DNA from: Dipteris shenzhenensis
Lineage: Eukaryota
Reading direction: 5' to 3' (one strand)
Length of the DNA: 64,000 nt
NCBI GenBank assembly: GCA_047967505.1
Contig: CM106538.1
Each line of letters starts with the position of its first letter. The first letter of the stretch is position 1. This document shows, one piece after another, positions 2,981 through 44,569 of this stretch. The notes beneath the pieces are model-generated. The model ran no database searches. It was not told where the DNA came from and worked only from the letters and a program-made list of their open reading frames with translations. The position numbers and the translations under genes were made by a program.

Positions 2981-2981
2981 G

Positions 2982-2993: not shown

Positions 2994-4367
2994 AAATTTC
3001 GCTCCTGTCTGTAGGAAATGCCCCCCACCTTCTAGCGCCTACCTGATACACCTCTTTCCGCTAGAAGGATATCCGGGCACATTGTGCATGGAAGAGATGG
3101 AGAGAATGAGCGTAAAAATTTTTTAGCGCCAACCCCACCTAAAGTCATCAATGGCCTCTCCATCTCCCCCATATCACGAGTTGATGTGAATGGACACGAC
3201 AAAAATTGTGTCTTTTGATGTGCTTGGGCTGTCCCAAAACCAAGGGACGCACCTTTTCCACCATCGGACACACCTTTTGATGAAGAGTTTTGACTCCACA
3301 CCCAAGGGACACATCCTATTGTGGAAAAAAGGACACATCTTTTCGTGTGGGGACACCCCTTTTTTAAAATAGGGTCACACCCCTTCATGAAAAGGTACAC
3401 CTATTCCAAGGGACACACCCCTTAGAATAGGCACACCTTTTGGCACCAAGCACCCTACAAAAGGGTACCTAAAAGGGCTAAAAAGAAAAACCAGCCCTAT
3501 ACCCAAGACCTAACCCTAGACTACCCAAGGGTTAATTAAACCCACATTTTAATTTTCTGGTAACCACCACCCAGCACTAGGTGCCCAAATCAAAAAATGC
3601 GAAATCCAGAATTCTGTTTCGCCTTTTTTGCCATACGTGTTTGCGCCATATCCTTGCAGCAAGCAGTGCCCCTCGTCAGGCCTCCATCTTGCATCGTTCT
3701 CGATGGCCTGCACTAGCCGGCTCTATTGCATACCTGCCTGCAAGACCTGGTGATCGAACAGACCCCCTTTGCAGCCTCTATCGTCAACTTGCTGCCTCGA
3801 TTTCTGCAAACAGCGCCAAGGTGCCAGAAATTCGCCATGATTACCTGCGATCAACAGCCTTTGCTGCCCGCAAATCAGCCAGGAAGCAAGAACAGCGCCA
3901 GATGCAACGATTTGTTTCAAGCCTCTGCCAGCGAATTTCTTCTAAGCCTCCCCTGCTTGTGATCAGCAGCCTCGATGCCCTTTTCATCTTGATTCAGACC
4001 AGCCTGGATCCTGCTGGCTCGTCTCGCCACCTTAGCCTGTGAACAGCGGCAGGCCAAGCCCTGCACTCCCATGGTACGCAGCAAATAGCACAGTTTCCAC
4101 GCAGAAGACAGCACCAGGTTCCGCGCAATCTGCCCTCTTCTGTAAATCGCCTCTGCCACGCCTCAGTCAGCCTTGAAAGTCTCGCCAGGCGCCTCTTAAT
4201 CGATGGACCTCCGGACAAGAGATTTTCAAGCCTTGCTATGCAACTAATTGGCAGATCTAATCTATGCCAGGTGGATTCTTTCCATTCTATTTCTAAGGAT
4301 TCTCTTTCATATTGTTATTTGACGCTCATTATCAAATTACAGCAAATGAAAGTCTCCTCCTTAAAGC

Positions 4368-9149: not shown

Positions 9150-9561
9150 TGTCACGATCCGTTACGTATTCCTTTCTCTATATCGAGACTTATGGATGGT
9201 TTGATGAATGGATACTTGTGGAAGGGTATGCCCTTTCGCGACGGGACACTTCCTATGAGGCACAACCCTTCACAAGAGACATTCTATTGAAGAGACACTC
9301 CTATTGTAATGTACCCTCTCATCAAGGGTCACATCCTTCACAAGGGGTACACACCTCTTCATGCACATACACTTTGGAGTTACACACCTTTTCATGTGTG
9401 ACTTTTCACTCTCTATATAAGAGAGGCCCAACTGTGTGGATGACACACTACAGATACTACAGACACTCAAGCAATACAAATATTCATTGTTCTCTACTAT
9501 TTCAGTCTCCTTTCTGTTCCTTAGCACATTTCTAAATATAGTAAATCTAGGATTTCTTACA
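9150..9561 (+). repeat. Gypsy 3' LTR (412 bp, TG...CA), preceded by a polypurine tract
   Basis: Direct repeat of 2572-2980; PPT GAGTGGGAGGGGA at 9137-9149. Confidence 0.95.
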
Positions 9562-19120: not shown

Positions 19121-19807
19121 ACCCCCCCCCCCCAAGCACGCATGTGCATGCACGCTCGCACATAGGCACACGCACACACACGTCCTTTGAATTCTTTCAC
19201 TTTTCACTATACTAATGATTCTAATCAGTAAGTGTTTCAAATATATATTTTTTGTTTTTAGATTAAATTTTATTGGTGCGTTTTTTGGATTCATCTAGTA
19301 CAATGGTGTAATGCAATGCATTTTTGGTGTCTTTAAAGGACTATCTTGTCCTTCAGTAATAAATATTGTCGCATCTTTACCTTTTGCTTAAGTGGTTTCC
19401 AAGCGGGTTTTATATTTGTTAATTCTAACATTTTTTGGACCCTTGATTATCCTGATGTATTGCTAACACTCATCAACCTTGGATTTCATTGATTATCCTT
19501 AATTTTGTATCCTTTGTAACCTCCAACGAACGGTGCTACTTTGAAAGACCGAAAATACGTGTGCACATATGTGCACACACACATGCACGCACACACGCAC
19601 GTTGGCACACACTTATACAAAAACTTTTGTAATTAATATTCTTCTTTAGTCAATTTTAAAAAAATTAATTTACTCCTTTAAATGCAACTTTAGTCTATTG
19701 GTACATTTCCTTTTAAACTGAGTTAATTCATTATTTGTTAGTGCTTGCCTTTGTGAAATCATTGTACTTTTATATGCTAGAATCTAGAGGCATGTTCTTC
19801 TTCTTAG

Positions 19808-19950
19808 GTAAAGTGATAACAAGCCAAGGGAAACATGCATTACTTGTCTACCCAAATTAAGCTATATTGTTTTAACATATGGTTTATTTGGATCGTGGTA
19901 GGTAAGTGGACCCTAACCTTAGAGCCTGGACTACCTGATGGATTCGACAC
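19808..19950 (+). repeat. ~140-bp dispersed module, copy 1 (others at ~20381-20520 and ~24081-24222)
   Basis: GGTAAAGTGATAACAAGCCA...GTAGGTAAGTGGACCCT..TGGACTACC.GA.GGATT is shared by three loci. Confidence 0.85.
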
Positions 19951-20125
19951 TTATTTACTTATTTTTGGTAATCCTAGCAGGGTTTGGTTGTGATAATACA
20001 TTTGAAATTAAACTTAATTTGAGTTCTTCATATTCTCCATATCTAAATTATTTCTAGTTAATGTTGTTAAGCTATTCTATGGCTGAATCGATTGTATGGT
20101 TCATTCATTGATGGGGTTATTAAAT

Positions 20126-21199: not shown

Positions 21200-23930
21200 A
21201 GACACACACACGCATTTTTCTTACAAAGAAATTTATCAGACACACACACACACATTAAAGAAAGATATATTCTATATATTTGAGAACTTTTAATGATAAT
21301 TTCTAAATAATTAAGATTTAATTTTTTCGTACAACCAACTCCCTAGGTATGGGACTATCCCTCTTTAATTTCTCACTATAAAATGTTTCCCCCCCTCTCC
21401 CTCTCCTTTTTCTTTACCTAATAATCCCCTTTTTTTGAATGCATAAGATTTATCCTAAAACCCCCTAGTACCCATTTATAAATTCTTTATTTGACTCTTT
21501 TTATGATATATATATGTGTATTAACTTGTTTAGTTGCTTTTATTATTTACTTTTAAAACCCCCTTTTTTAACCCTCTTGTTCTACCCCTTCTCTTCCCCC
21601 AATTAATCACCCCTAACTATTCCCTCTTTGATTGTCTCCCCCTCTTTAATTTGTTCATTTTATTTATTAGGAAAAACCATCCTCAATTGGGCGAGCCCCT
21701 TTTTTTCCCCCTTCCCCCCAAAACCCTCATGAAACCCCCTTTATTCACCCCTTTAAACACCCCCTTATTTGTTACTTTTTAAGGAAAACCCTCTAATATA
21801 TTTAGCCTACCCCCTAGTAACTTAAACTTCCCACTTTTCTAAACTAATCCTAACCGTTCGAGTCCTACGTTACCTACCCCTATCCTTGCTTTACAAGCTT
21901 GCTCCCTACTTTAACTCCTACGTGAGCACCGCCTTGCACGTTCAATGCCTCTACGCTAAATGGCGTGTGTTCACTCCTTAGAGTTCTTGCACCGCCCACG
22001 ATTCTTGGTGGTTTCTACTTCTCCTTGTTCTGCCAGCTCTCACCTTATACAAAGCTCTCTGCGTGCATTACTCGCTGGTGTCCCTTACTCCTCTGCCTTA
22101 GCCCTACGTCTCATCGATAACATTCTTACTGCATGGCATCCTTGCTTCTAGCTCTTCTCGACAGTCCACGCTCCTTCTTTATCAAGCTCCTCTCGTTGCT
22201 GCCCTTCACTGGACGACCTCTTTCCCGGGCAAGCTACTCTTACTCAGCTCCTTGTCATAAACGAACCACTGGCAACTGTCTCTTTCTCACATCGTTTAAC
22301 CTCATGTATTGCATGCCACCCCTTTTATGTAGTTGTCAGTTGTGTTGGAGCTTTCTGGGTTGTCAGTTGCTTGAAGCTTCGAAACCATTCGTTGATGTTG
22401 TTGATTGATTGCCTCTACGCTCACAGTCGCCTTTTTCTTGTTCCCTACACAAGCTTTTCTCCCTTCTCAACTACTAGTTCGTTGATGAACGACCTTTGAG
22501 TCCCGCTTGCTAGCCTGTTATGACTCCCTTTTTCTGGCCTGCTCTTAGAAGCTCGCTGTGTTTTTCCACTGCACTTTAGTTGGATAGCTTCTCGGCCCCC
22601 CTGCTTCTCTGGTGCTTGGTGTGCTTTTTCATGTTCCTCTACTGGCATTCGGCTCACCACGCCTCTTTTGAGCAACCTCTCTTACGTACTCCCTTTTGCT
22701 TTCTTACTGATTCTTCCACGCGCTTAGTTTACTGTTAACACAATGTCTACTGTCTTGTAGTGCATTCTGTTGTGCCAGCCTTCGTTTATCCTTCTCTTCT
22801 TTCATGATCTTGCTGTGAAAAGGCCCTCTTTTAGCTCTTCTTTGCTCGCTTGCCATCCCGGCTGCTGGTCGTGGTACTTACTTGTTGCACCTCGGCTTCT
22901 TTTTCCTTCAGCGGATTGACTCCTTGCTGTACTTTCGAAGTGCTCTTTCTGCGACTTCTTGCATGGCTCTTATGTTTTTTAGCCGAGTCAACCGTATGGT
23001 TGACTATGGCTCTTCTTTTAAGTATAAGTACCTTGGTTAGTTTTAACTATGGTTGGTCACAAGGGCCTTAGTTTCCTTTGTCTTTTTGTGTCTTTTCTTT
23101 TTTATGTCTTTCTTCTTGTTAAGTTTGCTTATAGGTAATGTAGTGCCCTATTCCATGGAAATTGTTGCATAAGTATTTTGTTTCCTTAAAATTATAGTTG
23201 TGCTTTTAATTATTTCTTACTTTTTAAGGTCTTATTTTTAGTGACTTGTATATAATCATTGTCTTTAAAGTGTCCTCTTATGAGAACACTTATAATCCCC
23301 TTCTTTTTTTATGCAGTATAAATGTACATAAATAAATACCTCTGGTGGTCTTCAAAATTTTGTTTTTAGCCTTTCGCTTTTCATAGTTAAAAACTAAATT
23401 TACTTCCTTGTTTCTTTTAATGTGTCCATTAAATACTTATAAATAATTAATTGACTTAATGGAAGTTTTTCTTTTGTGCAAGGATTTGTGGCTTACATTT
23501 TAAAAGGATGACTTTATTTAATTTTTCTATTTAATTAACTAAGGATGTGGACTACCCTCCTTTGTTTTTTAGAGTTATGTACTCTCATTTGGGCTTGGAC
23601 TACTCCCAATACCTTTCATTTTTTTCATTAATAGTTTTCATTGATTTGTTCTTAAACAATTCTCTTTGCTCATTAATTCCTCATTTAATTCATGGTCAAA
23701 CTATATGTTCCTCATTTATTTCCATGACTAATTATAGTTTTTACAAAGTAAGTTAGGCATTTTTTAGTGGCCTCCCTTAAATAGTTGGGCACCTAGTTGT
23801 TTAAACTACTTTAAGTTTTTGATTCCCCCATTAACTAGTGGGGCACTTAGTTATATAACTACTGTAACAGGTACACTTTATTTCAAGTGAGTGGATTCCC
23901 CCATTAAATAGTTGGGCTCCTAAGTTATAT
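21200..23930 (+). repeat. Unclassified ~2.8-kb pyrimidine-rich repeat, copy 1 (homology probably extends to ~24445)
   Basis: Collinear high-identity match to 25130-28000, for example AATGATAATTTCTAAATAATTAAGATTTAATTTTTTCGTACAACC and CCCCATTAAATAGTTG.GCTCCTAAGTTATA. Confidence 0.9.
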
Positions 23931-25129
23931 AACTATTGAAGGTTTTTTTTGACTAACCCCCTTTGTCACCTTCACTTTTAAGCCTCTAGAACTATAATTT
24001 AAGTTCTTTTTGGTTGGAGACCCCCTCTATTTTCTTGCTTAATGTCCTTTAAACATCCAAAAGGTTTGTTCAAATTCTGTGGTAAAGTGATAACAAGCCA
24101 GGGGATACAGGCATTACCTGTTTACCCAAATTCAACTTCATTGTTCTAACAAATGGTTGGTTTGGATGGTGGTAGGTAAGTAGACCCTGACCTGGAGCTT
24201 GGACTACCGGATGGATTTGACACTATTGTACTGATTCTTTGCTTAAGTTTGCAAACTCAATATAATGAAAAATTCTATTGCCAATCCTCTTGTTTTTCGT
24301 ACCAATTTTTTGGCTTACAATTTTGTCAAAAGTTATTTCAATTTAGTTTTCTTAAAGAATTTCAATCCATTTCTCATATGCATCTTTTTATAATTATCCA
24401 AATGATTGAATTAATTGTATGGTTCATATATTGTAGTAGGGACTAGCTACTATGACATCCTCACTGACGCCATCAGCGCCCAATAGTGGGTGTAGACCAT
24501 AGTATAAAAATATGCTCTCACACATACAAATCCACACACCCACACATACTTGAGCATCCATTTATACAAAGTCTTCGTATTGAGTTTCTGTCGGCACTCC
24601 GGAGGTGAAGGGCAGACTCAGCCATGATGAAGGCTAGTACTAAAGGAGAACGCTAATCAAAAGGTAGTCCAAAATCTCTTCATTCAAGCTACAGAGTTCT
24701 TTGGTCTTGTTTTTTTTTGGAGGAGGTGACCCTCTTCAGGTCTAGCCAGAGGGGCTCTCATGGTAGCTCCCTCAACTCCGACTTCCACTTGGATTATCCT
24801 TCAATCTAAACACACACACTGATCTCCTAACTAGCCTTCTAGTACCATATAATTGATTCATGATATGATAATTTTAAACATGGTCAAATGTTTGCCATTT
24901 AAGTTATTTTATGTGCTTTTTCTTTAATTACTAATAATTACTTTTTATGTGCAGAGACATTGGCTCTGAAAACTGGATGATGCATCTACTAATGGCAGTG
25001 TGCTTTATATCACTTTTTACACTTATCATAGAAATCCATTTTTTTGATATTTACTATTAGGTGGGGAGTAAGTTCCACATGGTGGGCTTACTCCCCACCA
25101 TGTGGTCTTACCTCTGAGATGGGGGTGGG

Positions 25130-28000
25130 CCACACACACACACACACACATTTTTCTCACAAAGAAATTTCTCTCTCTCTCTCTCTCACACACACACATT
25201 AAAGATTTAATAAAAAATATATATATTCTAAATATTTGAGAATTTCTAATGATAATTTCTAAATAATTAAGATTTAATTTTTTCGTACAACCAACCCCCT
25301 AGGTATGGGACTATCCCTCCTTAATTTCTCAATATAAAATGTTTTCCCCCCTCTCCCTCTCCTTTTTCTTTACCTAATAATCCCCTTTTTTTGAATGCAT
25401 AAGATTTATCCTAAAACCCCCTAGTACCCATTTATAAATTCTTTATTTGACTCTTTTTATGATATATATATGTGTATTAACTTGTTTAGTTGCTTTTATT
25501 ATTTACTTTTAAAACCCCCTTTTTTTACCCTCTTGTTCTACTCCTTCTCTTCCCCGAATGAATCACCCCTAACTATTCCCTCTTTGATTGTCTCCCCCTC
25601 TTTAATTTGGTCATTTTATTTATTAGGAAAAGCCATCCTCAATTGGGTGAACCCCCTTTTTTTCCCCTTCACCCCAAAACCCTCATGAAACCCCCTTTAC
25701 TCGCCCCTTTAAACACCCCCTTATTTGTTACTTTTTAAGAAAAACCCTCTAATATATTTAGACTACCCCTAGTAACTTAAACTTCCCACTTTTCTAAACT
25801 AATCCTAACCGTTCGTGCCTAACTCCAACCTATCCCTACCCCTATTCCTACGTTACCTACCCCTATCCTTGCTTTACTAGCTTGCTCCCTACTTTAACTC
25901 CTATGTGAGCACCGCCTTGCATGTTCATGCCTCTACTCTAAATAGCGTGTGTTCACTCCTTTAGAGTTCTTGCACTGCCCATGATTCTTGGTGGTTTCTC
26001 CTTCCCCTTATTTAGCCAGCTCTCACCTTATACAAAGCTCTTTGGTTTTCTACTGGCTCGTGCATTACTCTCCTAGTGTCCCTTACTCCTTTGCCTTAGC
26101 CCTATGTCTCGTCGATAACACTCAGCTCCTTCCTACATGGCATCCTTGCTTCTAGCTCTTCTCGACAGTCCACGTTCCTTCTTTATCAACCTTCTCTCGT
26201 CGCTGCCCTTCATTGGACGACCTCTTTCTCGGGCAAGCTACTCTTACTGAACTTCTTGTAATAAACGAACCACTGGCAACTGTCTCTTTCTCACGTCATT
26301 TAACCTCATGTATTGTGTGCCACCCCTTTTATGTAGTTGTCAGTTGGTTGGAGCTTGGGGATTTCTGGGTTGTTAGTTGCTTGGAGCTTCGAAACCATTC
26401 ATTGATGCTGTTGATTGATTGCCTCTACGCTCACAATCGCCTTTGTCTTGTTCACTACAGAGGCTTTTCTCCCTTCTCAACTACTAGTGTGTTGATCAAT
26501 GACCTTTGAGTCCCGCTTGCTAGCTTGTTATGACTCCCTTTTTCTGGCCTTCTCTTAGAAGCTCGCTGTGTTTTTCCACTGCACTTTAGTTGGATAGCTT
26601 CTCAGCCCCCTGCTTCTCTGGTGCTTGGTGTGCTTTTGCATGTTCCTCTACTAGCATTCGGCTCACCATGCCTCTTCTGAGCAACCTCTCTTACGTACTC
26701 CCTTTTTCTTTCTTACTGATTCTTCCACGTGCTTAGTTTACTGTTAACACAATGTCTACGGTCTTGTAATGCATTCTGTTGCGCCAGCCTTCGCTTATCC
26801 TTCTCTTCTTTCATGTTCTTGCCATGAAAAGGCCCTCTTTTAGCTCTTCTTTGCTTGCTTGCCATCTCAGCTAGTCGTGGTTCCCTTTGCACTTACTTGT
26901 TGCACCTCGACGCCTCTATATGTAGTTGCGACCATCTTTTTTCCTTCACCAAATTGACTCCTTGCTGTACTTTCGAAGTGATCTTTCCGCGACTTCTATG
27001 GTTTGGAGGTGTTGTTGCATGGCTCTTACGTTTTTTAGCTGAGTCAACTGTATGGTTGACTATGGCTCTTGTTTTAAGTATAAGTACCTTGGTTAGTTTT
27101 TACTATGGTTGGTCATAAGGGCCTTAGTTTCCTTTGTCTTTTTATGTCTTTCTTCTTGTTAAGTTTGCTTATAGGTAATGTAGTGCCCTATTCCATTGTA
27201 GTGCCCTATTCCATGGAAATTGTTGCATAAGTATTTTGTTTCCTTAAGATTATAGCTGCGCTTGTAATTATTTCTTACTTTTTAAGGTCTTATTTTTAGT
27301 GACTTGTATATAATTATTGTCTTTAAACTGTGTTCTTATGAGAACACTTATAATCCCCCCCTTTTTTTTATGCATGTATAAATGTACATAAATAAATACC
27401 TTTGGTCGTCTTCAAAATTTTGTTTTTAGCCTTTCACTTTTCATAGTTAAAATTAAATTTACTTCCTTGTTTCTTTTAATGTGTCCATTAAATACTTACA
27501 AATAATTAATTGACTTAATGGAAGTTTTCCTTTTATGTAAGGATTTGTGGCTACATTTTAAAAGGATGACTTTATTTAATTTTTCTATTTAATTAACTAA
27601 GGATGTGGACTAGATGCTCCTTTGCTTTTTAGAGTTATGTCCTCTCATTTGGGCTTGTAGTACCCTCAATACCTTTCATTTTTTTTCATTAATAGTTTTC
27701 ATTAATTTGTAATAATTTGTTCTTAAACAATTCTCTTTGCTCATTAATTCCTCATTTAATTCATGGTCAAATTATATGTTTCTCATTTATTTTCGTGACT
27801 AATTATAGTTTTTACAAAGTAAGTTAGGCATTTTTTGGTGGCCCCCCTTAAATAGTTGGGCACCTAGTTGTTTAAACTACTTTAAGTTTTTTATTCCCCC
27901 ATTAACTAGTGGGGCACTTAGTTATATAACTATTGTAATAGGTACACTTTATTTCAAGTGAGTGGATCACCCCATTAAATAGTTGTGCTCCTAAGTTATA
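25130..28000 (+). repeat. Unclassified ~2.8-kb pyrimidine-rich repeat, copy 2, cut at 28000 by a DNA transposon insertion
   Basis: Matches copy 1 up to CTAAGTTATA. Copy 1 continues TAACTATTGAAGG, whereas copy 2 switches to GGGAAGTAGC. Confidence 0.9.
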
Positions 28001-29280
28001 GGGAAGTAGCAAGCTAAGGGTGTCCACTTTTTGTTCACTCCCCAATCCTTAGGAGGTGGAAAAACAAGCTTTTTAGCACACAAAAATGCAAATCTCACCT
28101 ACTTCCCTATGGATCTAGTCTTTGAAGTCTTCTGACACAACATCACACTTGCTATTGTGCACACAATCGTATAGTCTGATCGAAAATTCGATGCACACAC
28201 AAAAAATTTCTTTGTGTCACACGGCATGGTTCCAGGGTGGTCACACATTTGTCACGAACAGAGAGTATCATATTAAATTCTAAATTTCTCACTCATTTTA
28301 GATTAAATGTTATTGAAACTTTGTAAGTGGTCTCTTTACATTATGTAGAGATTAACTTGATTTATTGGTAATTTTTTGAATGATTTATCTAATTATAAAT
28401 AATTATTTATAATAAATAAAGTCATAAAATACATGCATTTTAGTAGCACACCACATTTTTTTCGTATTTTGAATAATTAAGCAAATCCAATTCGGTGGAA
28501 GGTTAGTAGGCACATAAGGGTGTGTGGTTGAATCATTAAATCCCAAATCCAACGGTTAGATTTAGGAAGATTGAAGTTTAATTTTTACTTTTACTCCTTA
28601 GAGGATCAATAAAGAATATTAAAAATAAATCTAGTAATTCTCAAACATGACCAAACATTTCAAAAATGTCAATATTTTTAGTCCTCTGCATGATGAATAA
28701 GAGGAAAAATTTTTGGTTAAATTTGAGTAAGGGAAACGTACGATATGGCCTCCAAGAGTGAAATCTCCCTTTTGTGGGGGAAAAAGGGCCACCCAAGCCT
28801 AATACCAAGACAAGGTAGGCTTGGTATTAGGCTTGGTGAGGTAGGCTAGGAGCATCACCGACCCTAGTGGCAAGCCTTTGGAGTGTGCATGCTGCCCATG
28901 TGGAAGGCTGAGTCATCTATTTTTGCCTTGCAACCATGCCACGTTATTAGACCACGTGGTGCCATGTCATCAAGGAGATGTGACATCACTCCTTGCCATG
29001 TCACCTTACATTGCCACACGTGCTGCCACATGTGCCACCTCATCATTCCACATCATGAGCCATGTCATCACACCTTGCCACCTTGGCATACCTCGTCAAC
29101 CTTGCCACATCACCAATCCCTCCACCTCAATTTGCCATGTCAATCTACCACCTCATGAATGCCAACTCATCATGCCACATCACCTTTCCACGTCATGGAA
29201 GAGACTATATTGCCACATCATGACCATGCATGGTGCCACATCAGCCACATGTATATACATCACGATGTGCGAGGCATAGA

Positions 29281-29458
29281 ATACCTCGATCGAGGTATAT
29301 GACCTGCGTGAGGCATAGAATACCTCGATCGAGGTATATGACCGAGGGGTATGTGCTATGACCGAGGGGTACCTCGATCGAGGTTTATATCTGCGTGAGG
29401 CATTGAATACCTCGATCGAGGTATATGACCTGGGCATAGCATACCTCGATCGAGATAT
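29281..29458. repeat. Array of five 18-bp palindromes ATACCTCGATCGAGGTAT
   Basis: Perfect copies at 29281, 29320 and 29407; near-perfect copies at ~29369 and 29441. Confidence 0.95.
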
Positions 29459-29703
29459 TTGTAGGTACAAAACTGGAATAAAATCAAACGATGCAAATAT
29501 TCGAAATTAACGTTGGATTCCAACCAATTAGTTTCAATCTTAGCACCTTCTCCACCAATAATAATGAAGAGCAATCTAAGAGCAATCTAGCGGATGAGTT
29601 GAGGCTCTTTATAAGACACCACGTTTTGGTTCATTTCACCCATTCTTAGCCATTCTTGCCTCCTCACCACTTTGTCACACCTTCCATCCTACTTTCATTG
29701 AGA

Positions 29704-32642
29704 ATGGGTTCTCAAAGCCGTAGAGCTAGTAGACGTGAAAGATGTAGGAACCCCCCCCCAAATCTCATTGACGAGGAGCGCAAGCGGAAGGCTCGTGAGC
29801 GCAAGAGAGCCTCTAGAGCTAGAGATCGTGCTGCCACCACCGATCCACCTCCACCTCTACCTCTACATCCCACCTCCACCTCCACCTCCACCCCCACCCC
29901 CACCCCCACCCCCACCTCCATTGCTCCCCTACCTCTAGCCTCCGCCCTTCCCCTAGCCACCTACATTTTGGCCTCCACCTCTACCTCTTCCCCCTCCACC
30001 CTCCCCACCCTCCCCCCTCCCCCTCCCCCTCCCCCTCCCCCCGTTCCCCTTGGCACCTCCCTTCCCCCGTCCACCCTACCATCTCCCATTGATCCCCTTG
30101 CCCCACCTTGCAGTAGCAGTGTTGCTTCACGACGTGACTTGCCGAAGTCCACTATCTGTCGTCGTACTAGCAAGATTGTGCAGTCTTTTTTTTGTGACCT
30201 CATGCCAGCTTCATAGTCTTCTCTTCTCATGTCCTTGATTGATCACCCTGACTTGGTAGAGTGTAGGAAGCTTGCTGGTCTTGGTGCACGTAGAGATAGG
30301 GTTGTATCTAGCGAGGTCCTTAGCAGTGTTCGACGTTCCTATGCTTCTATTAAGCATAGGAACTCCAGTGATGCCTTGGCAGCACGTCCTGCTATTGTGG
30401 CTGCCATTAGTAGACCTCATATGATAGGCCATGTGCGTACCGCTTCACATCTTCTTCAGATTGCACCGCGCACATTGCGAGCAGGCATGATTAGGAGGCA
30501 GAGTCTAGAGGATAGTGAGACTGATGCTCTTTGGGCTTCGAGTGGTCGTGCACCTCGCAACGATCGATTGTTGGATGATTCCACTAGGTCCTTCATACAA
30601 CAGATTTGGGAGGAGCATTGCAGAGCATCCCTAGTGTTCAAGAAGGCATTGCAGAAGAGGGTGTCATGCGGTGTGTACATTGAGCATGGTGCATGTTTTT
30701 TGGAGTGTACCCAGACTGAGTTGTATACTCAGTTTGTAGAGGCGCACCCGAAGTTTAGGATTGGGCAGAGGTCATTTGAGCGATGCAGGCCATGGTTTGT
30801 GCGATGCTCTCAGGAGCGTGACACATGCTGTTGTCGCTACCATGTGGATTTTGAATTGATGTATGATGTATTCCGTTCCCTTGATGGTCATAGGGGAGTG
30901 GTTCCTACTAGCCCTCGCGATTTCATTCATTCCATATTGTGTACACGAGATGGTGATGCTTTATTCCACTCCCTTGACTGTGTGGAAGGCAGGTGTACTT
31001 TGTGTGGTGACTTTGCTAGAGTGCCACGAGTTGCACTAGATACTTGTGATGTGCAGATGGTTCATTGGCAGCAGTATGAGTATAGTACCTTGACATTAGA
31101 TGGTGGTGCACAGTCGAGGAGGTTGCAGCTTGTGGGGAAGGAGACACCACGTGTTGTATTCATTGACAGTTTTTGAGGGAAGCTGTACCGCTACATACGC
31201 CACTCGCACACTGCGAAATGGGAGGATCGTCAGTTCCGTGCATGTTTGAGGACATTTCCTACAGGGGTGGTTGTCTCAGTGGTGGACTTTGCGGAGAATT
31301 ACACCTTTGCACCACAGCATGAGATCCAATCGGAGTATTATTTCTCCGAACAGGTGACGTGTGATTGAGTATTGATTTTTTCCCCGCCTCATTATATTGA
31401 ATTATTTCAATAGTCATATTTTTTTTCAATGCCATATTACAGGTTGCTATATTTGTGCACATTAGCTATCGTCATGCACAGGCTCATGTGGATGGCATTG
31501 ATAGCACCATGGACTCACGCGTCATTGTGCGAGAGTATCACTTCTACATTAGTGATGATCGATCACATGATGCCCATTTTGTGCAGCATTGCTTCACTTT
31601 GCATGATAGTTTCTTGAGAGATCATGGTGTCACATGGCAGCGGCGCTGGATCTGGTCAGACGGCTGTGGTGGTCAGTTCAAATTCGCTAGACAGTTTTAT
31701 TGGTTCTGCAGATGGCACCGTGAGACAGGCATTCCGATCACATGGAGCTACTTCGAGACAGGGCACGGTAAGGGAGAGCACGATGGTGCAGGTGCTTGCC
31801 TGAAGCGTGCTTTGCATCGATACTAGTTGCGTCACAGTGCCGATCGCTTCAAGGATGCACATGATGTGGTGCGGTGGTGCAGCCAGCACTTATCCACTAG
31901 TGCTATCTCCTCGTTTCAGTCGCGTGACGATAGGGTGGTGTGCCGGTATTTTTGGTGCGTGGACATTGGGAGTCTTGATCAGTCTAGGCCTTTTGATTGT
32001 CGTTCAGTGTCTGGCACTCTTGATTTCCATTCCATCAGGAGCATAGGTGAGTCTCACCCCGTGATCTTTTCTCGACGGTTTGCATGTTTTTGCTCTGCAT
32101 GCATTGATGATGATTGGGGAGGGTGCTCCATGATACCATGGGCCGATCCATGGGTACGGCGAGTGCTTTCTCCCTTCCAGCCTTGGGAGGAGGTACATGA
32201 TGATTAGGATGTGGGATTCAGTTCCTCTAGAGATTATGACCAGCTTACATATATTTTGTGTATTGGTGATATCTTCGCGGTTATTGCTTCGGAGGGCAAT
32301 GAGGAGGGTGTGGATTATTACTTGTTGCGATGCTCTATGCTGAAGAGTGTGCTGAATGAGGATACAGTGGATGGGCATGGGATGCACTTCAATGCTCATA
32401 GCATGATCGTAGGTGGCCACTATTTTCAACAGATACAGAAGCGTGGTCGCTATATTGAGTTCCAGGAGTACATGGCGGATCAGGAGGCATACATGTATTC
32501 TCATCTTGTTGTTGCGATCAAGATTACTTTGAGTCGTGTTCGCACTCGCAAGACAACGTCCACTCCATGATGGCGCCTTGCAGTGGCGGATCACGAGAGC
32601 ATACTTGCAACTATTGGCATGAGAGCTGATCCTGAGGAGTAG
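29704..32642 (+). pseudogene. Transposase (Sola2-like DDD type), ~949 aa, exons 29704-31353 and 31443-32642, five in-frame stops, no frameshifts
   Basis: ORFs 29656-30216 and 30229-31176 share a frame. After an 89-bp GT-AG intron (31354-31442), ORFs 31455-31826, 31827-32207 and 32211-32570 share a frame. Motifs: basic NLS-like stretch, Pro/Thr-rich linker, CCCRYH, DFAENY (31285), SDDRSHD, WSDGCGGQFK (31659), YFETGHGKGEHDGAG (31782), CFCSAC. Confidence 0.88.
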
Positions 32643-32974
32643 CACATTACATATCATATTTTTTGGGATCATGAGTTGATCAGATTGATTTTTATTGGGT
32701 ATCACTAGTTGATTACACATTTTTGTATTCGATATATATAGGCTCACTGTGTGATCGTACCATTGTAATTTTCATGGACTCATATTTTGTATTTCACTCT
32801 GATGGTTGTATACACGTTCATACACATCATTGTATTAGATTCTATTTTATACATGATGTCTGATGTCTTCTCAATGGGATTTGTTGTGTTTGTAAAACAA
32901 AAAATTATTTATTAGTAGTAATGTTGTAATTTGTTTTGTGCTTTAGGACATTTTAAAAACGTGACTAAGAAAAT

Positions 32975-33726
32975 TCGCGCACGTACTAACAAAATACGCG
33001 TGTGGACTTATCTGTTGGTCCCTACTAGCACGACTACGTATGAAAAATGGTGCACGTACTAACGAAATACGCATATGGACATTTCTGTTGGGGATGAAAC
33101 TTTGCACGACTCTTAGGTCACCATAGACATACATCCATGCAAGATTTGGTCTCCAACTGATTTGGTATGCGCCACGTAAAGGTATAATGCGTACATTTTT
33201 ACAATCCCTACTAGCACGACTGCGGCAAAGCTATGGTGCACGTACTAATGAAATACACATGTGGACTTATCTGTTGGGGATGAAACTTCGCACGACTCTT
33301 AGGCCACCCTAGACATACATCCATGCGAGATTTGGTCTCGAACTGATTTGGTATGCGCCACGTGGAAGGTACAATGCGTACATTTTTACAATCCCTACTA
33401 GCACGACTGCGGCAAAGCTATGGCGCACGTACTAACGAAATACACGTGTGGACTTATCTATTGGGGATGAAACTTCGCATGACTCTTAGGCCACCCTAGA
33501 CATACATCCACGCAAGATTTGGTCTCGAACTGATTTGGTATGCGCCACATGGAAGGTATAATGCATACATTTTTACAATCCCTACTAGCACGACTACGTA
33601 TGAAAAATGACGCACGTACTAACGAAATATGCATGTGGACTTATTTTTTGGAGATTAAACTTTGCACAGCTCTTAGGCTACCGTAGACGTACATCCATGC
33701 AAGATTTGGTGTCCAACTGATTTGGT
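32975..33726 (+). repeat. Tandem repeat, 186-187-bp unit, ~4 copies
   Basis: TCCCTACTAGCACGAC recurs at 33019, 33205, 33392 and 33579; the last unit is truncated. Confidence 0.95.
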
Positions 33727-34228
33727 CTGGGGTTCAGATACAGTTGCATAGATACACTGATGCTGATTGGGCTGGTAGTATTTCTGATAGATGATCTACC
33801 AGTGGATATGTGTTCTCTTTTGGGAGTGCTGCAGTCACTTGGAGCAGCAAGAAACAACCTACAATTGCCTTGTCGAGCACAGAGACTGAGTACAGGGGCG
33901 CAGCAATGGCTTTATGTGAGGTAGCTTGGTTGCATAAGCTACTTTATGATATGCATCACTCCACAGATGGGCCAGTTGTCATTTATTGTGACAAGATGAG
34001 CAGTATACACTTGGCAAATAACCCAGTCTATCATGCTAGAACAAAGCACATTGAGGTGCATTATCACCATGTGCAGGAAAAGGTTTTACTAGGTCTTATT
34101 GATCTAGTTTATGTCAGCATAGAAAATTAGGTAGCTGACATGTTTATGAAGGCATTGGGTGCAGAGAAGCTGCGCAAGTTCAAAGACCTGCTTGGTGTGC
34201 AGGAATTGGGATTGAGCTCGAGGGGGAG
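33727..34228 (+). mobile_element. 3' fragment (RNase H + PPT) of an upstream Copia-2 copy sharing the LTR at 34229
   Basis: Near-identical to 38890-39386 ([24 protein letters not shown]); ends in PPT GAGGGGGAG. Confidence 0.92.
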
Positions 34229-34581
34229 TGTTGAGATATCGAGCTCCACTCGTGATATGCCAGGGTGACCATTGTGCATTTATGTCACCGACTTGTTAGC
34301 TGCAGATGCGGTTGGTACACCGCTGATGAATAATAGCTGGATGACAGCTATCCTTATGTATTCTAGTTTGTGGCTCAGTTAGTATGCCACCTTAGTTAGC
34401 TGAGTTTGGTTTGAGACCCACATATAGGGTTCTTCTATTTCTTTGTACTAGAGTTCTTTTGGCTTTCACAACTAAGAAGAGGAAAACTAGTTTTCAGCCT
34501 CCACCTTTGTGTGTATTCCCCCATTGTGTATGTGAGAAAGCCACAAGTGAGACTCCTTCCTTCTCTCCCACTATCTTCACA
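34229..34581 (+). repeat. Copia-2 LTR, shared between two tandem copies
   Basis: TGTTGAGATATC...ATCTTCACA, preceded by a PPT and followed by a PBS. Confidence 0.95.
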
Positions 34582-35125
34582 TGGTATCAGAGCCTGGTTC
34601 ATGGTAAGGAGCTCAAGAAAGCAAACCAAGTTCGCGGTGTCCTGGTAAGAGGACCAGTGTTGCTTTCCTTTTTCGAGTTTGGGAGCAAATCTTTGCAGGT
34701 AGCACAGCCAGAAAGTGCAAGAGTGCATTGTCTCAGATTGAGACGCCCTTCGTGGTGTGGCGAGAGGGCAGTATATGCTAGGGGTCAGGGCAAGGCCCTA
34801 GGTGACTTTATTTTTCTGATTCGAGGCCATTTCGGGGCCCGTTTTGGAGGCAGAAGTTCTCCGCAACCACTAAGAAAAAGGCCCTATTTTTGCTGTGCGA
34901 CCACTGCTCTTCAGATCGATGAAAAGTTGCCGCAGAAATTGCATCGTATGCCTGTGCGCAGAGATATTGGGAGTTACAGAATCATCCTTATTGCCTGTTC
35001 ATGCAAAATCGTCACTAGGAAGTGACTGTGTGGTCAAATACCACTTTCGTCAGTTTTGCAGATTTGCCCTTGTGAGGCAGAAGCTGTTTTTTTTGTAGTG
35101 ATAGAATATTTTGCAGTGTTCTATA

Positions 35126-38100
35126 ATGGTGTCTGATTCTCTTTCACAGATTGTCACTGAAAAGCTTGACAAGAACAACTTCCAAGCATGGAAGTTTAGA
35201 ATGACGAATTTCCTTATGGGAAAAGGCTATTGGGAGTTCATTATAGGAAATGAAGAAGAACCAGTTCTTCCTAATGTTCCCAAACAATAGGAAATGCAGG
35301 CATTTAAAGGATGGCATGAGAGAGCCGGAAAAGTTATGTCCTGGCTGTCTATCAGTATTTCAGATTCTATGATTGTGCATATTCAGGATGCAAGTACACT
35401 AAAGGAGGCATGGGATACTTTGGCAAAAATGCACAGCACAAATACGCAAGCCAGGAAAATGCAGCTCAAGAGGAGTTGCACAATGTGCAGAGAGAAAATA
35501 TGAGCATCAATGACTACCACATGAAGGTGAAGAAAATTGCAGATGCACGTGCTTCCACTGGGTCGCCAGTGAAGATGATGATTTAGTTTCTGTGACCTTG
35601 AATGGTCTAGGAAAAAATTATGCACAGTTTCGGACATTCATTACCATCCATGAAAAATTTCCAAATTTTGGGGAGTTGTTTGCTCTTGTCATTTCTGAAG
35701 AGCAGAGAAATGGTGGTGCATCTTCTTCAGGAGGAACTTCAAAAGAAATTGTCTTCTACTCAAATGCTGGAAGAGGTAGAGGCAGAGGTAGAGTAGGCCG
35801 ATTTGGAGGCCATGGTAGAAATCAAAATATGCAACAAACTCAAGAAAACCAGTCCTATGGAGGAGGATGTGGTAACTCTAGAGGTAGGGGGAGCCAAAGA
35901 GGTTGTGGTGGATGGCAGAGAGGCCAAAATGCAAACAGCAATGTTGAATGCTACTACTATGGTAAAATGGGTCATATGGCTAAAGACTGCTATAAAAAGC
36001 AGAATGACATCATGAATGGAAAATTGCAGCAAGGGAATTATGTATCTTCTAGTAGACAGGGTGATGACAGAAATGAGCATCTTTTTATGGTGCAGCATAG
36101 GACCAATTCTGTAACAAGTGCAGAAGAAAGCAATGATGTGTGGTATGTTGACTCAGGTGCATCAAACCACATGACAGGTTATGCAGAATGGATGCAGAAT
36201 GCAAGGAAAATGGAAAGACCAGGATTTGTGGAGACTGGCGATGATACTGCACATCCTATTATGCAGATTGGTAAAATTCCTTTGTCTATGCAGGATGGGA
36301 AAAAGAAATACCTGTCTGATGTATTTCATGTCCCGAATATCACCAAGAACCTGATTTCTGTTGGTCAAATGGTTGAGCAGGGCTTGTAGGTCAGATTTAA
36401 TCCTCATGGATGCTTTGTTGAGGATATGAAAAATAACGGTCGCTTGATAGTAAAAGGAAAGGAGAAGGGTAGGATGTTTACATTGGATGCGGACATGCCT
36501 GAATTGAGTGCAGCAATGTTTGCACATGGGACCGAAAGATATGGATATCTGGCATAAACGCATTGGTCATGTTAATGTATAGCGACTTAAATCAATGCAG
36601 GCCCAAAATATTATTGCAGAACTGCCTAAATTCAAGGTTGCAGAAATGCATAAGGGTATGTGAAGCCTGTCAATTTGGAAAACAGGAAACGAAACCATTT
36701 CCTAGACATGTTCAAGAGAGTAAGAAGCCATTGGAATTAATCCACTCTGATGTGTGGACTACTAAAGTTGCATCTATTGGAGGCTGTCATTATTTTGTCA
36801 CTTTTATTGATGACTACAGTAGAAAAGTTTGGGTGTATTTTATGAAAAAGAAAAGTGAAGTGTTTGGGCATTTCAAAGCTTTTAAAGCTATGGTTGAAAA
36901 AGAAACAGGCATGCAAATAAAATGCCTAAGGTCAGATGGAGGGGGAGAGTACCTCTCAAATGAGTTTGCAAGGTTCCTGCAGGAGCATGGCATAAAGCAG
37001 CAATATTCATGCAGTCATACCCCACAGCAAAATGGACTTGCAGAAAGGAAAAACAGGCATATTGGAGAGGTATCTCGGGCCATCCTAAATGAAAAAGACC
37101 TACCAGATTATTATTGGACTGGAGCAGTTCCTACAGCAGTTTACATAATGAACAGGACTCCCACTGCAGCAATACATGGCATGATGCCAGAGGAGATGTA
37201 TACTGGTAGGAAACCACATATTTCTCATTTGAAATTTTTTGGTTGCATTGCCTATGTTCATGTGCCAGATGAGTTGAGGTCCAAGTTGGATCCAAAAGCT
37301 GAGAAGTGCATCTTTATTGGTTATTCTCTGCAGCAGAAAGGGTATAGATGCTATAACCCTTCTACTCGTAAGTTTACAAAGAGCAGAGATGTTGTTTTTG
37401 ATGAGATGAGTAGCTGCACAGAATTCACAACAGCAATCATAAAATATTCGTGGACTTGCAGTGTCCTCTAGCAGTGGTTCACATACTTCACCATGGATAG
37501 GTAGATTGAGATAAGGAGAATCTCCTCAAAGCAATGCAGATAGTGGTATGGAGGTATCACGAAAAGGAAAAGAGAAGGTAGATCAGCCCATGTTTGATGT
37601 GAATGCAGGTCACTCTTATGTGGATGGTGAATCCAGTGGCTCAGAACAGAGCATTGATGACGAGTTGGGTATTCCTTCTATTGTTACACCTGGAGTAAGG
37701 AAGACCAAGGATGTTTTGAGAGCACCTGGAAGTGAGCCTATTTTGCGCAAGTCTACCAGAGCTAGGTATCCTGTGGATAGGCTAAAATATGATGGATTTA
37801 CAACCATTCACTATGCCTATATGGTCAAAGTGATACAGGAACCAGAACCCACTTCTTTTGAGCAAGCCATGAGAAAAGAAATATGGGAGAAAGCCATGGA
37901 TGAAGAAATGGATGCCTTGGAAGCAAATGCTACATGGGAATTGGTGCCTTTGCCTAAAGACAAGAATGCAATTGGTTGTAAGTGGGTTTATAAGGTGAAG
38001 CACAATGCAGATGGTTCTGTGAACAGATACAAGGCAGGATTAGTTGTTAAAGGGTATGCACAAACATATGGCATTGATTATGAAGAAACATTCAATCCGG

Positions 38101-39426
38101 TTGCAAGGATGGCAACTGTAAGAGCAGTCATTGCTATGGCTGCATCAAAGGGATGGTCTTTACATCAGATGGATGTAAACAATGCCTTCTTGCATGGTGA
38201 TTTGCAAGAAGAGGTCTTTATGGAGCAGCCACCAAGTTATGTTCATGCTGTTCATCCTGAGTGTGCTTGCAAGTTGAAGAAAGCCTTGTATGGCTTGAAG
38301 CAAGCACCTAGAGCATGGTCTGACAAGATAGGACAATATCTTGTCACTATTGGCTTTCAGATTTCCAAGGCAGATTTCTCACTTTATGTGAGAAAAACAG
38401 AGAAAGGTATTATGCTGCTTGTCATTTATGTTGATGATTTGATCATCACAGGTGATAGTGATGAAGATATTCTTCATGTGAAAATGCTATTGAAGCAGAA
38501 GTTTGAGATGAAGGATTTGGGAGAGCTGCGTTATTTCTTGGGCATTGAGGTGATTAGATCACCAAGTGGGATACGGCTCTTGCAGAGGCAGTATGGATTG
38601 GACATGCTGTCCAAATATGGGATGATAGGCTATAAGCCTATTTCAGTTCCTTTGGAGCAGAATGTGAAGCTGAGCGCAGATGCAGGTGAGCTTCTGGAAG
38701 ACGTTACTATGTAGAGATGCATAGTAGGAAGTCTGATTTATATGACTATTACCAGGCCAGATTTGAGCTGCTATGCTATTGGATTGGTAAGTCAGTTTAT
38801 GCAGGCTCCAAGGAAATTGCATTTGGATGCGGCTAGATGCATACTCAGGTATGTGAAGTCCACATTGCAGTATGGACTATTTTATGAGACTAGGGTTCAG
38901 ATACAGTTGCATGGATACACTGATGCTAGCTGGTAGTATTTCTGATAGACGATCTACCAGTGGATATGTGTTCTCTTTTGGGAGTGCTGCAGTCACTTGG
39001 AGCAGCAAGAAACAACCTACAGTTGCCTTGTCGAGCACAGAGGCTGAGTACACGGGTGCAACAATGGCTACATGTGAGGTAGCTTGGTTGCATAAGCTAC
39101 TTTATGATATGCATCAGTCTACAGATGGGCCAATTGTCATTTATTGTGACAACATGAGCAGTATACACTTGGCAAATAACCCAGTCTATCATGCCAGAAT
39201 AAAGCACATTGAGGTGCATTATCACTATGTGTGGGAGAAGGTTTTACTAGGTCTTATTGATCTAGTTTATGTCAGCATAGAGGATTAGGTAGCTGACGTG
39301 TTTACGAAGGCATTGGGCGCAGAGAAGCTGCGCATGTTCAAAGACCTACTTGGTGTGCAGGAATTGGGATTGAGCTTGAGGGGGAGTGTTGAGATATCGA
39401 GCTCCACTCGTGATATGCCAGGGTGA
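35126..39426 (+). pseudogene. Copia-2 gag-pol polyprotein, disrupted
   Basis: MVSDSLSQIVTEKLDKNNFQAWK; RG-rich gag; [68 protein letters not shown]. Several stops and frameshifts. Confidence 0.93.
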
Positions 39427-39739
39427 CCGTCATGCATTTATGTCACTGACTTGTTAGCTATAGATGCGGTTGGTACACCGCCCATGAATAATAGCTGGAT
39501 GATAGCTATCCTTATGTACTCTAGTTCGTGGCTCAGTTAGTATGCCACCTTAGATAGCTGATTTTGGTTTGAGACCCACATATAGGGTTCTTCTATTTCT
39601 TTGTACTAGAGTTCTTTTGGCTTTCACAACTAAGAAGAGGAAAACTGTTTTTCAGCCTCCACCTTTGTGTGTATTCCCCCATTGTGTATGTGAGAAAGCC
39701 ACAAGTGAGACTCCTTCCTTCTCTCCCACTATCTTCACA
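39387..39739 (+). repeat. Copia-2 3' LTR
   Basis: Direct repeat of 34229-34581 with about 15 substitutions by eye. Confidence 0.95.
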
Positions 39740-39920
39740 ATACATACGTACATACACACACATACATACATACATACATACATGCATACATGCATGCATA
39801 CATACATACATACATACATACATATAGATACATCTGTATGTACGTATGTACACACATGCACGCACACACACATACACACATGTGCGCGTGTACATGCACG
39901 CATGCACGCACACACGCACA

Positions 39921-39973
<53 letters not shown>
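39740..39973 (+). repeat. Compound microsatellite (ATAC)n/(AC)n flanking the Copia-2 LTR
   Basis: Direct reading of the sequence. Confidence 0.95.
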
Positions 39974-39977
<4 letters not shown>

Positions 39978-41779: not shown

Positions 41780-41940
41780 TATATGTGTATGTGTATGTGA
41801 GTGTAAAGGTATAGAAAATGTGTGTGTGTGTGTGTGTGTTTCTCTCTCTCTCTCTCTAATTATGTATCTGTGTATCTGTGTATGTATGTATGTATGTATG
41901 TATGCATGTATGTCTGTATGTATATGTATATGTATATGTG
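41780..41940 (+). repeat. Compound microsatellite (GT)n/(CT)n/(ATGT)n
   Basis: Direct reading of the sequence. Confidence 0.9.
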
Positions 41941-42899
41941 GATGGCTATCGCGGTCTTTCCCCTTGAATGAAAATTGGTGATTGTTGTTGCTATCGTAAC
42001 CTTTTTTGAATATTTCATCAATGTTGTGTGTGATGTGCTTTTTTTGCCTATAGGCAACTACATTGAACACTTTCTTTGAGAATACAAAGGAACCTAATAG
42101 AAACACATACAATAGCAAGTGGGAATAGTGGTAAATAGTATGTTCTTACATGAGGCGAGAGCCTACATTTCATGGGGCAATCAATCAAGTTGTGCTGGGC
42201 TGACAAGAAAAAGAAGTTGCGTGCAACTAAAAGGTCATGCAAAGAGAAAAGCATCATGATTATTGATGATACCACAATTAGGAATATTCCTCGAAAAGCT
42301 GGTGGGTGCTTTCAAGAACAAAGGGACGGATCAAGCAAAAAAAAAAAGGCTTTGTGGCAAATCCTTTGAGTGGATAGAGAGGAGGAAGAGAGGGAGGAGG
42401 TGCGAGCAGAGATGGTGGCTGTAGGTGATGAGCATAGATGAGGCACAATGGAAGAGGGAAGAGGGAAGAGGTGACCTTCATAGATAGCTCTTAGAGAGAA
42501 TCTCGCCACAGATAGATGCTAAGTGGAGAGAAGAGTAGCCGTTATATTATGACGCATAAGGTGAGGAGTTTAGGGTTAGATATAGGCTAGGTATAAAGCC
42601 ACGAGGAGGCCATTACCATAAATGCTAGCTATGGCCTCTAGCTAACTATTGCCAGTTATCCGCCGCCATGTACCATATGTCCAAGCACACTTCCTGACTA
42701 GCAATTTAAAAGAGCCTTAGAGAACACTCTACTTAGTCTACCTAAGAGAGCAATGGGAATCCAAGGGGAGAAAAGACAAATAAGTGCTATACTCACTCAA
42801 AGGTTCTCAACGATATTATTCACGAGACATTACTGGCTAAAGTGTGCCCGTAGCGCTACTTCATTCACGTGATGACCCCTTGTATTTAGTCTTTAATTT

Positions 42900-42931
<32 letters not shown>

Positions 42932-43051
42932 AAACCATGAGGGGGACTGAGAGAGAGAGAGAGAGCGAGAGAGAGAGAGAGAGAGGGAGGGAAACCATGA
43001 GGGGGACTGAGAGAGAGAGAGAGAGCGAGAGAGAGAGAGAGAGAGAGAGAG
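42900..43051 (+). repeat. (GA)n microsatellite with a 60-bp tandem duplication
   Basis: GGGAGGGAAACCATGAGGGGGACT occurs twice, 60 bp apart, within GA runs. Confidence 0.95.
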
Positions 43052-44569
43052 GTACCAAGACAATAGAGCTATTAGGAGTCACACTATGTCAACATTTGTG
43101 TAGAAATTATATTTCACAAGAATCTCTATTCAGAGGTCGTGGAATTAGAGTACAAAGCCCAAACCGAGTAGTTTGAATGAATTAAATGGAGAGAAGGGAA
43201 AAGTGGGGGTGGTGGCTTAACTTCATGCATATGCAACTGGCCAATAGTCAATTACAAATTGTTTGAAAGCTGAATAAAATTCCACATTATTGATGGAATT
43301 TAAAAATACCATTCTTCACTCTTTCAAGCATTTAAAAAAAGCAGTGTTAAGGGCATGCCTTTTTGTCCTCCTCTTCTTACTTTCACCCATTTCTAAATTT
43401 GTGCAAATCTTGCCCTTTTTTTAATAACATATTAATAGCATTCTTATGCCTTTTTTTTTTTCACCATTATAAATTGGTGGTTAAATTAAGTATTTTAAGA
43501 CATTAGAGGTTTGTCTAAGTACCAGGGTTGCCACTCTTTTAAAAATCATACAATTGTGCGACTAAGCACACATTTAAAATACCCTTATACTTAAAACTTC
43601 ACTTTTTTTTTGGCATAATTGTTTAACCTTGTCTATATTTATACATGTTACATGTAATGTTGAATTTAAAAGTCCCCTCCATACATGTACATATGACAAT
43701 TATATCAGGTAAACATTTTAAAAACCCCCTCCTATCCCATAAATGGCCTTAGCCTTTCTCATTCTCACCTTATCATGAAATATTTTTCCAAAACATTTAA
43801 AGCAAAGCTTTATCTAGAGAGGAGAATAAAGTATCTAGTTTCGTGTTATTGTTAGAGGTCTGGGAACTCAAATTCATTGATGAGTACTTGATGAAGAAGC
43901 TATTGATGAAGAAACTCATAGTCAGCAAGAGTTGATGCCTTGAGACATACTAGAGAAGTTGTGCTTGAGGGAGGTTTGCCAACAATGGCAAGAGGCTACA
44001 TATAATTGTCATGGTGATTGGTCTCCTAGGTTAAACTCATGCAATTTGTTGATGAACATCTACAGCAGCAGATGTCTTCCCTTCAGGTTTTGCAATCTAT
44101 CACTCTAACATCAATGACACAAGACCAAAAAAATAAGGGCTTCTTTAAAGCTATATACCCAATCATGGGTTCTTGTATGAGCTTTGTTCTTAAATTCTAT
44201 GCCTATGTCCATCCCCCATGAGGTCTTCTCAAGGCCTGCTTTAAAGATGAACTCCCTCTAAACCTAGTGCCTTCAATTGGTACATCCCTTGGGTGGCATG
44301 TGTCCTTGAATTGAGTCTCCTTTAGAGCCTTTCATATGCACCCCTTTGTAATGCTAGGCTTGAAGATAACTCTTATACATGATGACATATCGACATCAGA
44401 TGGTCATATAGACAAACATCCCACCTTGGTAGATGCTATTGAGCCCTCATGGTTCCTCACCTTACCATAACTATACGACTCCATGATTACGATTGATGTA
44501 ACATTCATTCCCTCTATAGCTCCACATGTATGTACATTAGTGTTGTAATTATGGTTGATTAGCATAGTG

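Follow-up and report, generated by a model that had tools for sequence, protein, structure and literature searches.

A DDD transposon copy inactivated by mutation, most probably Sola2, with a predicted BAH-like C-terminal domain in Dipteris shenzhenensis

Sola transposases are said to carry a triad of catalytic aspartates (DDD), as Bao and colleagues reportedly described in 2009, and the 5' terminus of Sola2 elements reads GRG. The Sola2-type elements DFa and PPa of dictyostelids have 4-bp AT-rich target-site duplications (TSDs) and 12–21-bp terminal inverted repeats (TIRs), and the DFa-2 transposase has 888 amino acids (PMC3627910). Sola RNase H domains are given without a Pfam match in the accessible part of another study (PMC5751038). 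Here we describe a stretch of 64,000 nucleotides from Dipteris shenzhenensis (contig CM106538.1, assembly GCA_047967505.1), hereafter the window, in which positions 28001–33726 contain a transposase pseudogene split by one intron. The region is probably the dead remnant of a cut-and-paste transposon of DDD type, with Sola2 as the likeliest assignment; its ends are uncertain, and it is nested among retrotransposons.

The plant host bears on whether this element is new. Table 3 of a 2015 survey, as excerpted, places Sola2 among the superfamilies found only in animals (PMC4438587). In the accessible portions of later plant reports, DNA/Sola-2 occupies 56,686,823 bp or 0.6% of the contigs of Cryptomeria japonica, second among the DNA transposon classes (PMC11539532), Sola2 is the most abundant class II superfamily of Cupressus sempervirens in a 2026 preprint (bioRxiv 10.64898/2026.07.23.736688), and single Sola2 matches appear in a table of a Brassica paper (PMC6482515); these conifer and Brassica figures come from automatic classification and may not refer to the family in the window. 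Conifer DNA/Sola-2 resembles the window family in having a plant host and in lying outside the usual plant superfamilies, and the window family is likewise multi-copy in a relative, but the conifer excerpts consist of coverage figures from automatic classification only. The initial annotation of the window had regarded Sola2 as mainly an animal and protist superfamily, a view that the 2015 survey shares and the later listings do not, and its view of the locus as the best candidate for an undescribed system is not supported, DNA/Sola-2 being already listed in both conifers. The window element is a further member of a known transposon type and an ordinary relic.

Translation of the two exons (Table 1) yields 550 and 400 positions, which confirms the spliced frame of ~949 codons that had been proposed. 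The corresponding stop-to-stop open reading frames (ORFs) run from 29650 to 31368 in one frame and from 31401 to 32570 in a second. Beyond a basic N-terminus, exon 1 encodes a linker rich in Pro and Thr, then a helical region, a cluster of Cys residues and the first of the catalytic aspartates. All motifs quoted in the initial annotation were located, with CCCRYH (30826–30843), CVEGRCTLCGD (30979–31011) and DFAENY (31285–31302) in exon 1, and SDGCGGQFK (31656–31682), HGKGEHDG (31764–31787) and CFCSAC (32085–32102) in exon 2. The three D codons begin at 31285 in exon 1 and at 31659 and 31782 in exon 2. The closest relative is 57% identical across 96% of residues 172–550 of exon 1, and the N-terminus MGSQSRR is common to the window protein and relatives P0003 and P0005. 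The exon junction is uninterrupted in relatives P0008–P0010 (34–37% identity) and in metagenome locus L001. Three of the four closest relatives, P0003–P0006 (51–57% identity), stop exactly at the intron site and the fourth reads through a short insert there, and the intron position is therefore common to the closest lineage.

The window copy is mutationally dead and cannot make the protein. Five premature in-frame stops interrupt the frame (TAG 30214, TGA 31174, TAG 31824, TAG 32205 and TGA 32568) ahead of the natural stop at 32640, which was placed by alignment with P0004; no frameshift was seen in the transposase frame. At four of these positions the aligned relatives carry R, R, Q and R, and at least three of the stops are thus explained by a simple C-to-T change in a CGA or CAG codon. 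Such nonsense changes would fit what is expected of a methylated, silenced plant transposon. The label 'full-length' holds for the span of the gene but not for its coding capacity.

With exon 2 as the query, a search of all 1.84 billion cluster representatives returned 2627 proteins at E ≤ 1e-3, of which 489 had E ≤ 1e-10 and 19 had E ≤ 1e-30. Full-length members have 850–973 residues. Metagenome contigs contained 112 stretches encoding relatives at 35–69% identity, 80 of which were kept as loci, and one set of these contigs held nine distinct family loci (L057–L079). The family is large and is spread across eukaryotes. Long intact open frames in relatives include one of 1106 codons in L016 and one of 943 codons in L021, and the L016 frame indicates that intact or nearly intact copies exist in other organisms. 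That frame (1016–4333) includes two stretches resembling small in-frame introns that are read through.

The catalytic core was examined in an alignment of 60 family members (A1), with residues numbered after P0008. Almost no variation is seen at D479, Q493, D574, K581, H609, D615 and K622. Of the 53 sequences with residues in all three triad columns, 49 have DDD; the median spacing between the first and second D is 94, and the second and third are 41 apart in 35 of the 53. The AlphaFold2 model of P0008 has a mean predicted local distance difference test score (pLDDT) of 80.6, rising above 90 across the core, where the elements follow the order strand-strand-strand-helix-strand-helix-strand-helix. 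Strand 1 of the model carries D479, strand 4 ends with D574, and the helix that follows begins with D615. The model of this relative combines a mixed five-strand sheet and helices with acidic residues at the three canonical positions of RNase H-like DDE/D transposases. Prototype foamy virus (PFV) integrase 3oyk and Mos1 4mdb place their acidic residues alike, on strand 1, behind strand 4 and in the next helix of an RNase H-like fold, but they share 9–16% identity with the family and their flanking domains differ. The modeled fold and the triad place the gene product, as a DDD enzyme, in the RNase H-like superfamily of transposases and integrases.

Comparisons of fold and sequence with known structures are less specific. 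Foldseek alone gave nothing at E ≤ 1e-3, and its best matches were IstA and retroviral integrases at E ~1e-3 (1.1e-3) with probabilities of 0.99–1.00. Profiles A1 and A2 matched no PDB sequence at E ≤ 0.001; A1 returned only RING-finger chains at E 0.65–1.1, and A2 returned nothing at E ≤ 10. In the structure comparison retroviral integrases do no worse than mariner, and fold comparison therefore cannot tell the superfamilies apart.

Pfam separates the family from the transposases usually found in plants. No Pfam family matched the window pieces or ten full-length relatives, and the hAT, MULE/Mutator, CACTA, PIF/Harbinger and Tc1/mariner models matched 0 of the 60 A1 members at E ≤ 1. The sole exception in the scan of these 60 against Pfam transposases was a sub-threshold Transpos_assoc match in one member (E 0.0068). 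The position that had been claimed for the element is therefore upheld in so far as the usual plant superfamilies have Pfam models. Lacking a Pfam match, the family falls into the same Pfam-less set as Sola, as that set appears in the excerpted source (PMC5751038).

The family is most probably the Sola2 of Repbase and RepeatMasker, an assignment that likens it to Sola2 by described features and not by reference sequences. A DDD triad on an RNase H-like fold points to Sola2. Both the window family and Sola2 comprise cut-and-paste type DDD transposases of about 900 residues that have no Pfam family, and for both, cnidarians, molluscs and arthropods are common sources of relatives; the window family has its nearest ESM Atlas clusters in Cnidaria, Rotifera, Mollusca and Arthropoda. 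The abundance of DNA/Sola-2 in the two conifer genomes is a further pointer. The AT-rich TATA before a candidate 5' end that begins with GGG may be another resemblance. The window copy differs from known Sola2 in being plant-borne, intron-containing and dead, and the short TIRs and 4-bp AT-rich TSDs of DFa and PPa were not found in it. The source names of the matched database records were not informative for the family.

Several observations weigh against this reading. Among the named Atlas clusters, 29 of 30 matches carry DUF7869, with scores of 0.90–0.93, a level that the calibration of the tool treats as leads only. One Atlas cluster has 11% PF07592 members, and PF07592 is the TP36 family, which is tied to Zator and not to Sola. 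Elsewhere in the window the first 20 nt from 28001 have no inverted counterpart with three or fewer mismatches, and neither a 4-bp TSD nor an empty site was found there. Both proposed ends coincide with the ends of other repeats (28000 and 33727). The motif arrays upstream of the gene have no inverted counterpart downstream, and inverted GCCAYRTSA is absent from 32640–33800.

The protein-level observations raise the prospect that the family belongs to another superfamily without a Pfam model, whether related to Zator, related to DUF7869 or a DDD superfamily not yet named. An excerpted source does tie TP36 to Zator (PMC7386202). At E ≤ 1, none of the 60 A1 members matched DUF7869 or PF07592, the Atlas scores are leads and the fold does not discriminate, and RepeatModeler-based conifer annotations, in the portion available, contain abundant Sola-2 and no Zator (PMC11539532). 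The Atlas accessions PF30714 and PF30715 are outside the Pfam version searched. We consider membership of another superfamily rather unlikely, though it is the strongest of the alternatives. The similarity to TP36/ISAzo13-type transposases that Zator would call for was not seen, the 11% Atlas cluster being the only link.

The ends of the Sola2-like copy were examined from the proposed boundaries at 28001 and 33726. The sequence does read TATA|GGG at 28000/28001, as the initial annotation had it; the boundary placed there is an interpretation with weak outside support. That support comes from X6, a sequencing run from a related organism. X6 record 25, a 2048-nt contig, matches only 28003–28297 (contig 719–1015, with 37 mismatched letters and 4 gaps); to either side its sequence does not resemble the window, including the 718 bases before the match starts. 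A left end at 28001 is possible because this match begins at 28003. Contigs of X6 (record 25), X2 (records 9 and 10) and X3 (records 17 and 18) tile 28003–29837 with one uncovered gap at 29249–29523, over the palindrome array. X1 depth is 3–4 in bins spanning 27739–28806 and 20–119 beyond, but contig depth cannot rank parts of the stretch and was not used as evidence.

Further searches for paired ends were negative. A repeat-pair search found no convincing inverted arms joining the 28001 and 33726 ends, and the upstream sequence shared only two 10-mers with the reverse complement of the downstream sequence, both AT-rich or trivial. For an empty site, the sequence from 23930 onward was compared with that after 28000, 28108, 28297 and 33726, giving scores of 20–22 against shuffle means of 21–23; a BLAST search for the downstream flank of the first repeat copy likewise found nothing. 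A TIR and TSD search of the 80 metagenome loci with 12-nt seeds gave mostly noise, with no recurrent terminus or 4-bp duplication, and no inverted ends were found at the boundaries of loci that are 85–93% similar (L002/L003, L016/L019, L018/L027 and L066/L067).

On the left the region abuts a direct repeat of 2.7 kb, and on the right a fragment of a copia retrotransposon (Table 1). The two copies of the copia fragment are 94% identical over 855 nt. The upstream half of the truncated copia is not in the window, where only a different copia with 50% identity is found (824–2541 and 9563–11203). The left flank is not copia, and the two flanks are thus not halves of one target. Position 33726, the proposed right end, is a junction with the truncated copia fragment and possibly a truncation.

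It had also been proposed that 28001–33726 is one complete element with both termini, starting at GGG after a TATA target. The start of the X6 match at 28003 after 718 unlike bases, the overlapping X6, X2 and X3 contigs across most of 28003–29837 and the inverted copy of the motif near the left end (Table 1) favor such an element. The same X6 match stops at 28297, however, the 5' end has no inverted counterpart near 33726 or elsewhere in the window, and the bases before 33727 are not CYC. Position 33727 is inside copia pol with its upstream half absent, the left flank is not copia, and no 4-bp duplication was found. A complete element is improbable and the claim of one is not supported: no TIR, TSD or empty site was found for the span, and its right end looks like a breakpoint.

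That the locus is instead a pseudogene derived from a transposase gene which the host recruited and domesticated is very improbable, for the intron position kept in P0003–P0006, the chromatin-reader-like C-terminal domain and the long intact ORFs of L016 and L021 are set against several differing copies in X6, the nine loci in one metagenome set, five stops, a location among nested retrotransposons and thousands of family clusters across many phyla. X6 records 27, 28 and 29 overlap on 30562–30844 and are mutually different, which indicates several family copies in the related organism. X6 contigs with 97% identity cover 31776–33012. None of the sequencing runs shares half or more of the words of the stretch, and no RNA run is listed among them; neither result was used as evidence.

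The dead transposon copy is accompanied by short repeats on both sides of its gene (Table 1). Besides CCTCGATCGAGG, just one other 12-nt palindrome is repeated in the window. The element had been credited with a cis-architecture of its own; the palindromes, the hairpin and the 187-bp tandem are present, but neither they nor the GCCAYRTSA array are matched by inverted copies across the gene, and we do not regard them as a fixed architecture. Repeated palindromes occur in 16 of the 80 related loci, compared with 0–2 of 80 in five shuffles, and their position varies by lineage between upstream, within an intron and downstream. Palindrome arrays as a conserved, position-specific feature were rejected, as the position differs between lineages. 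Relatives at 57–61% identity have upstream palindrome arrays of their own (TTTCGGCCGAAA; TCGCATATGCGA / GCGATATATCGC) that are unrelated in sequence to CCTCGATCGAGG.

Relatives at 44–50% identity (L039, L048, L043 and L037) have the N-terminal 260–300 codons as a separate exon. The long intron that follows it is packed with short lineage-specific repeats, among them a 12-nt palindrome that occurs as many as 15 times. The intron motifs of L037 and L043 recur in inverted orientation directly after the stop codon.

The part of exon 2 that follows the core contains a cysteine cluster and a beta-rich domain. The model of window exon 2 has a mean pLDDT of 90.1. The CxCxxC..C cluster (32085–32126) comprises C215, C217, C220 and C228, each of which is kept in 42 of 48 relatives, and 48 of 58 aligned relatives, which range from plants to animals, have the beta-rich domain. 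Structure comparison gives modest support for a C-terminal module that is predicted to combine the folds of a zinc finger and a BAH-type chromatin reader. A limited literature search found no report of a BAH-type or zinc finger plus BAH-like module on Sola2 or any other transposase. Transposable elements that have captured chromo or PHD readers are described in the excerpts available of one preprint (bioRxiv 10.1101/2021.11.30.470311). Chromodomain integrases resemble the window family in combining a mobile-element enzyme with a C-terminal reader-like domain that could tether it to chromatin. The window domain differs in being BAH-like rather than chromo or PHD, in being carried by a DDD DNA transposase and in being predicted by structure comparison with modest scores. 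That the zinc cluster and BAH-like barrel would form a true chromatin reader, tethering the transposase to marked nucleosomes and steering insertion, is a tentative proposal with the odds against it.

The features together suggest how the ancestral element may have worked. Its gene would have encoded a transposase of ~949 residues, predicted to consist, in order, of the basic N-terminus, a helical region that is probably DNA-binding, the Cys cluster, an RNase H/integrase-like core with the triad D-94-D-41-D, the zinc cluster and the BAH-like domain. Judging from the fold and triad, an active element would recognize repeats close to its own ends, excise itself and reinsert.

Table 1. Coordinates of the pseudogene, nearby repeats and flanks in the window, and of repeat stretches in related metagenome loci
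Feature	Position	Strand	Evidence or remark
Left flank, outside the element: second copy of 2.7-kb direct repeat	25211–28000	+	First copy at 21256–23929
Possible 5' terminal block, begins GGGAAGTAG	28001–28297	+	X6 contig match; inverted CTACTTCCC at 28100–28108
Perfect 17-nt hairpin, 10-nt loop	28793–28836		Repeat-pair search, 100% complementary
Array of 8 direct GCCAYRTSA copies upstream of the gene	28961–29243	+	8 of 9 matches in the 64-kb window
Palindrome array ATACCTCGATCGAGGTAT, core CCTCGATCGAGG	29271–29459		ATACCTCGATCGAGGTAT within 29281–29459; cores at 29284, 29323, 29372 and 29410, plus one imperfect copy
Exon 1, transposase pseudogene	29704–31353	+	Translation, 550 positions, stops read as X
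Intron, 89 nt, GT..AG	31354–31442	+	
Exon 2	31443–32642	+	Translation, 400 positions; rest of RNase H-like core, CxCxxC..C cluster, C-terminal domain
Beta-rich C-terminal domain, predicted BAH-like fold	32223–32612	+	Exon 2 residues 261–390
187-bp tandem, 3.8 copies	33019–33726	+	Ends where the copia fragment begins
Right flank, outside the element: 5'-truncated copia pol tail and long terminal repeat	33727–34581	+	Repeated at 38890–39739
Stretches in relatives at 44–50% identity (intron repeats; motifs after the stop codon)	L039 1778–1955; L048 912–1740; L043 1137–2100 and 4592–4867; L037 69–480 and 2615–2680		
Upstream palindrome arrays in relatives	L007 10–125; L008 665–763; L018 19–51; L027 619–721		

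The surroundings of the pseudogene are rich in other repeats. A unit of ~4 kb occurs twice in tandem to its left, with 19793–19966 matching 24067–24240 and 21256–23929 matching 25211–28000 at 89.6% identity over 2799 columns. The unit contains no long ORF, and its 115-codon ORF has no Pfam match. It is absent from the X6 contigs, in which 24001–25068 is very high-copy. A Ty1/copia element occupies 33727–39739, with pol at 35514–38711 containing Pol_BBD, rve, SH3_retrovirus and RVT_2, and is preceded by a 5'-truncated copy of its own pol tail and long terminal repeat (LTR). This layout suggests two elements sharing an LTR. The second copia (824–2541 and 9563–11203) has ~50% protein identity to the first and is seemingly split by an insertion of ~7 kb between 410-nt direct repeats that are 97% identical (2574–2980 and 9152–9561); the insertion is probably a nested LTR retrotransposon. 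Dinucleotide microsatellite blocks of the GA/TC type at 39740–39975, 41813–41950 and 42888–43080 include an inverted pair ~2 kb apart, and a 60-nt periodic GA-rich array lies near them.

One decayed copy of a family that repeat pipelines already label in some plant genomes adds little in itself. The large family to which it belongs, with its DD41D core, two cysteine clusters and conserved C-terminal domain, is outside the Pfam models searched, and plant annotators may leave it unclassified because these models do not cover it. The short lineage-specific arrays beside the gene are candidate transposase-binding sites. The conserved reader-like domain is the only part of the element worth follow-up, and it could explain target choice if chromatin reading is real. 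The family would then represent a cut-and-paste transposon with built-in BAH-type targeting, comparable to the chromodomains of chromoviral integrases.

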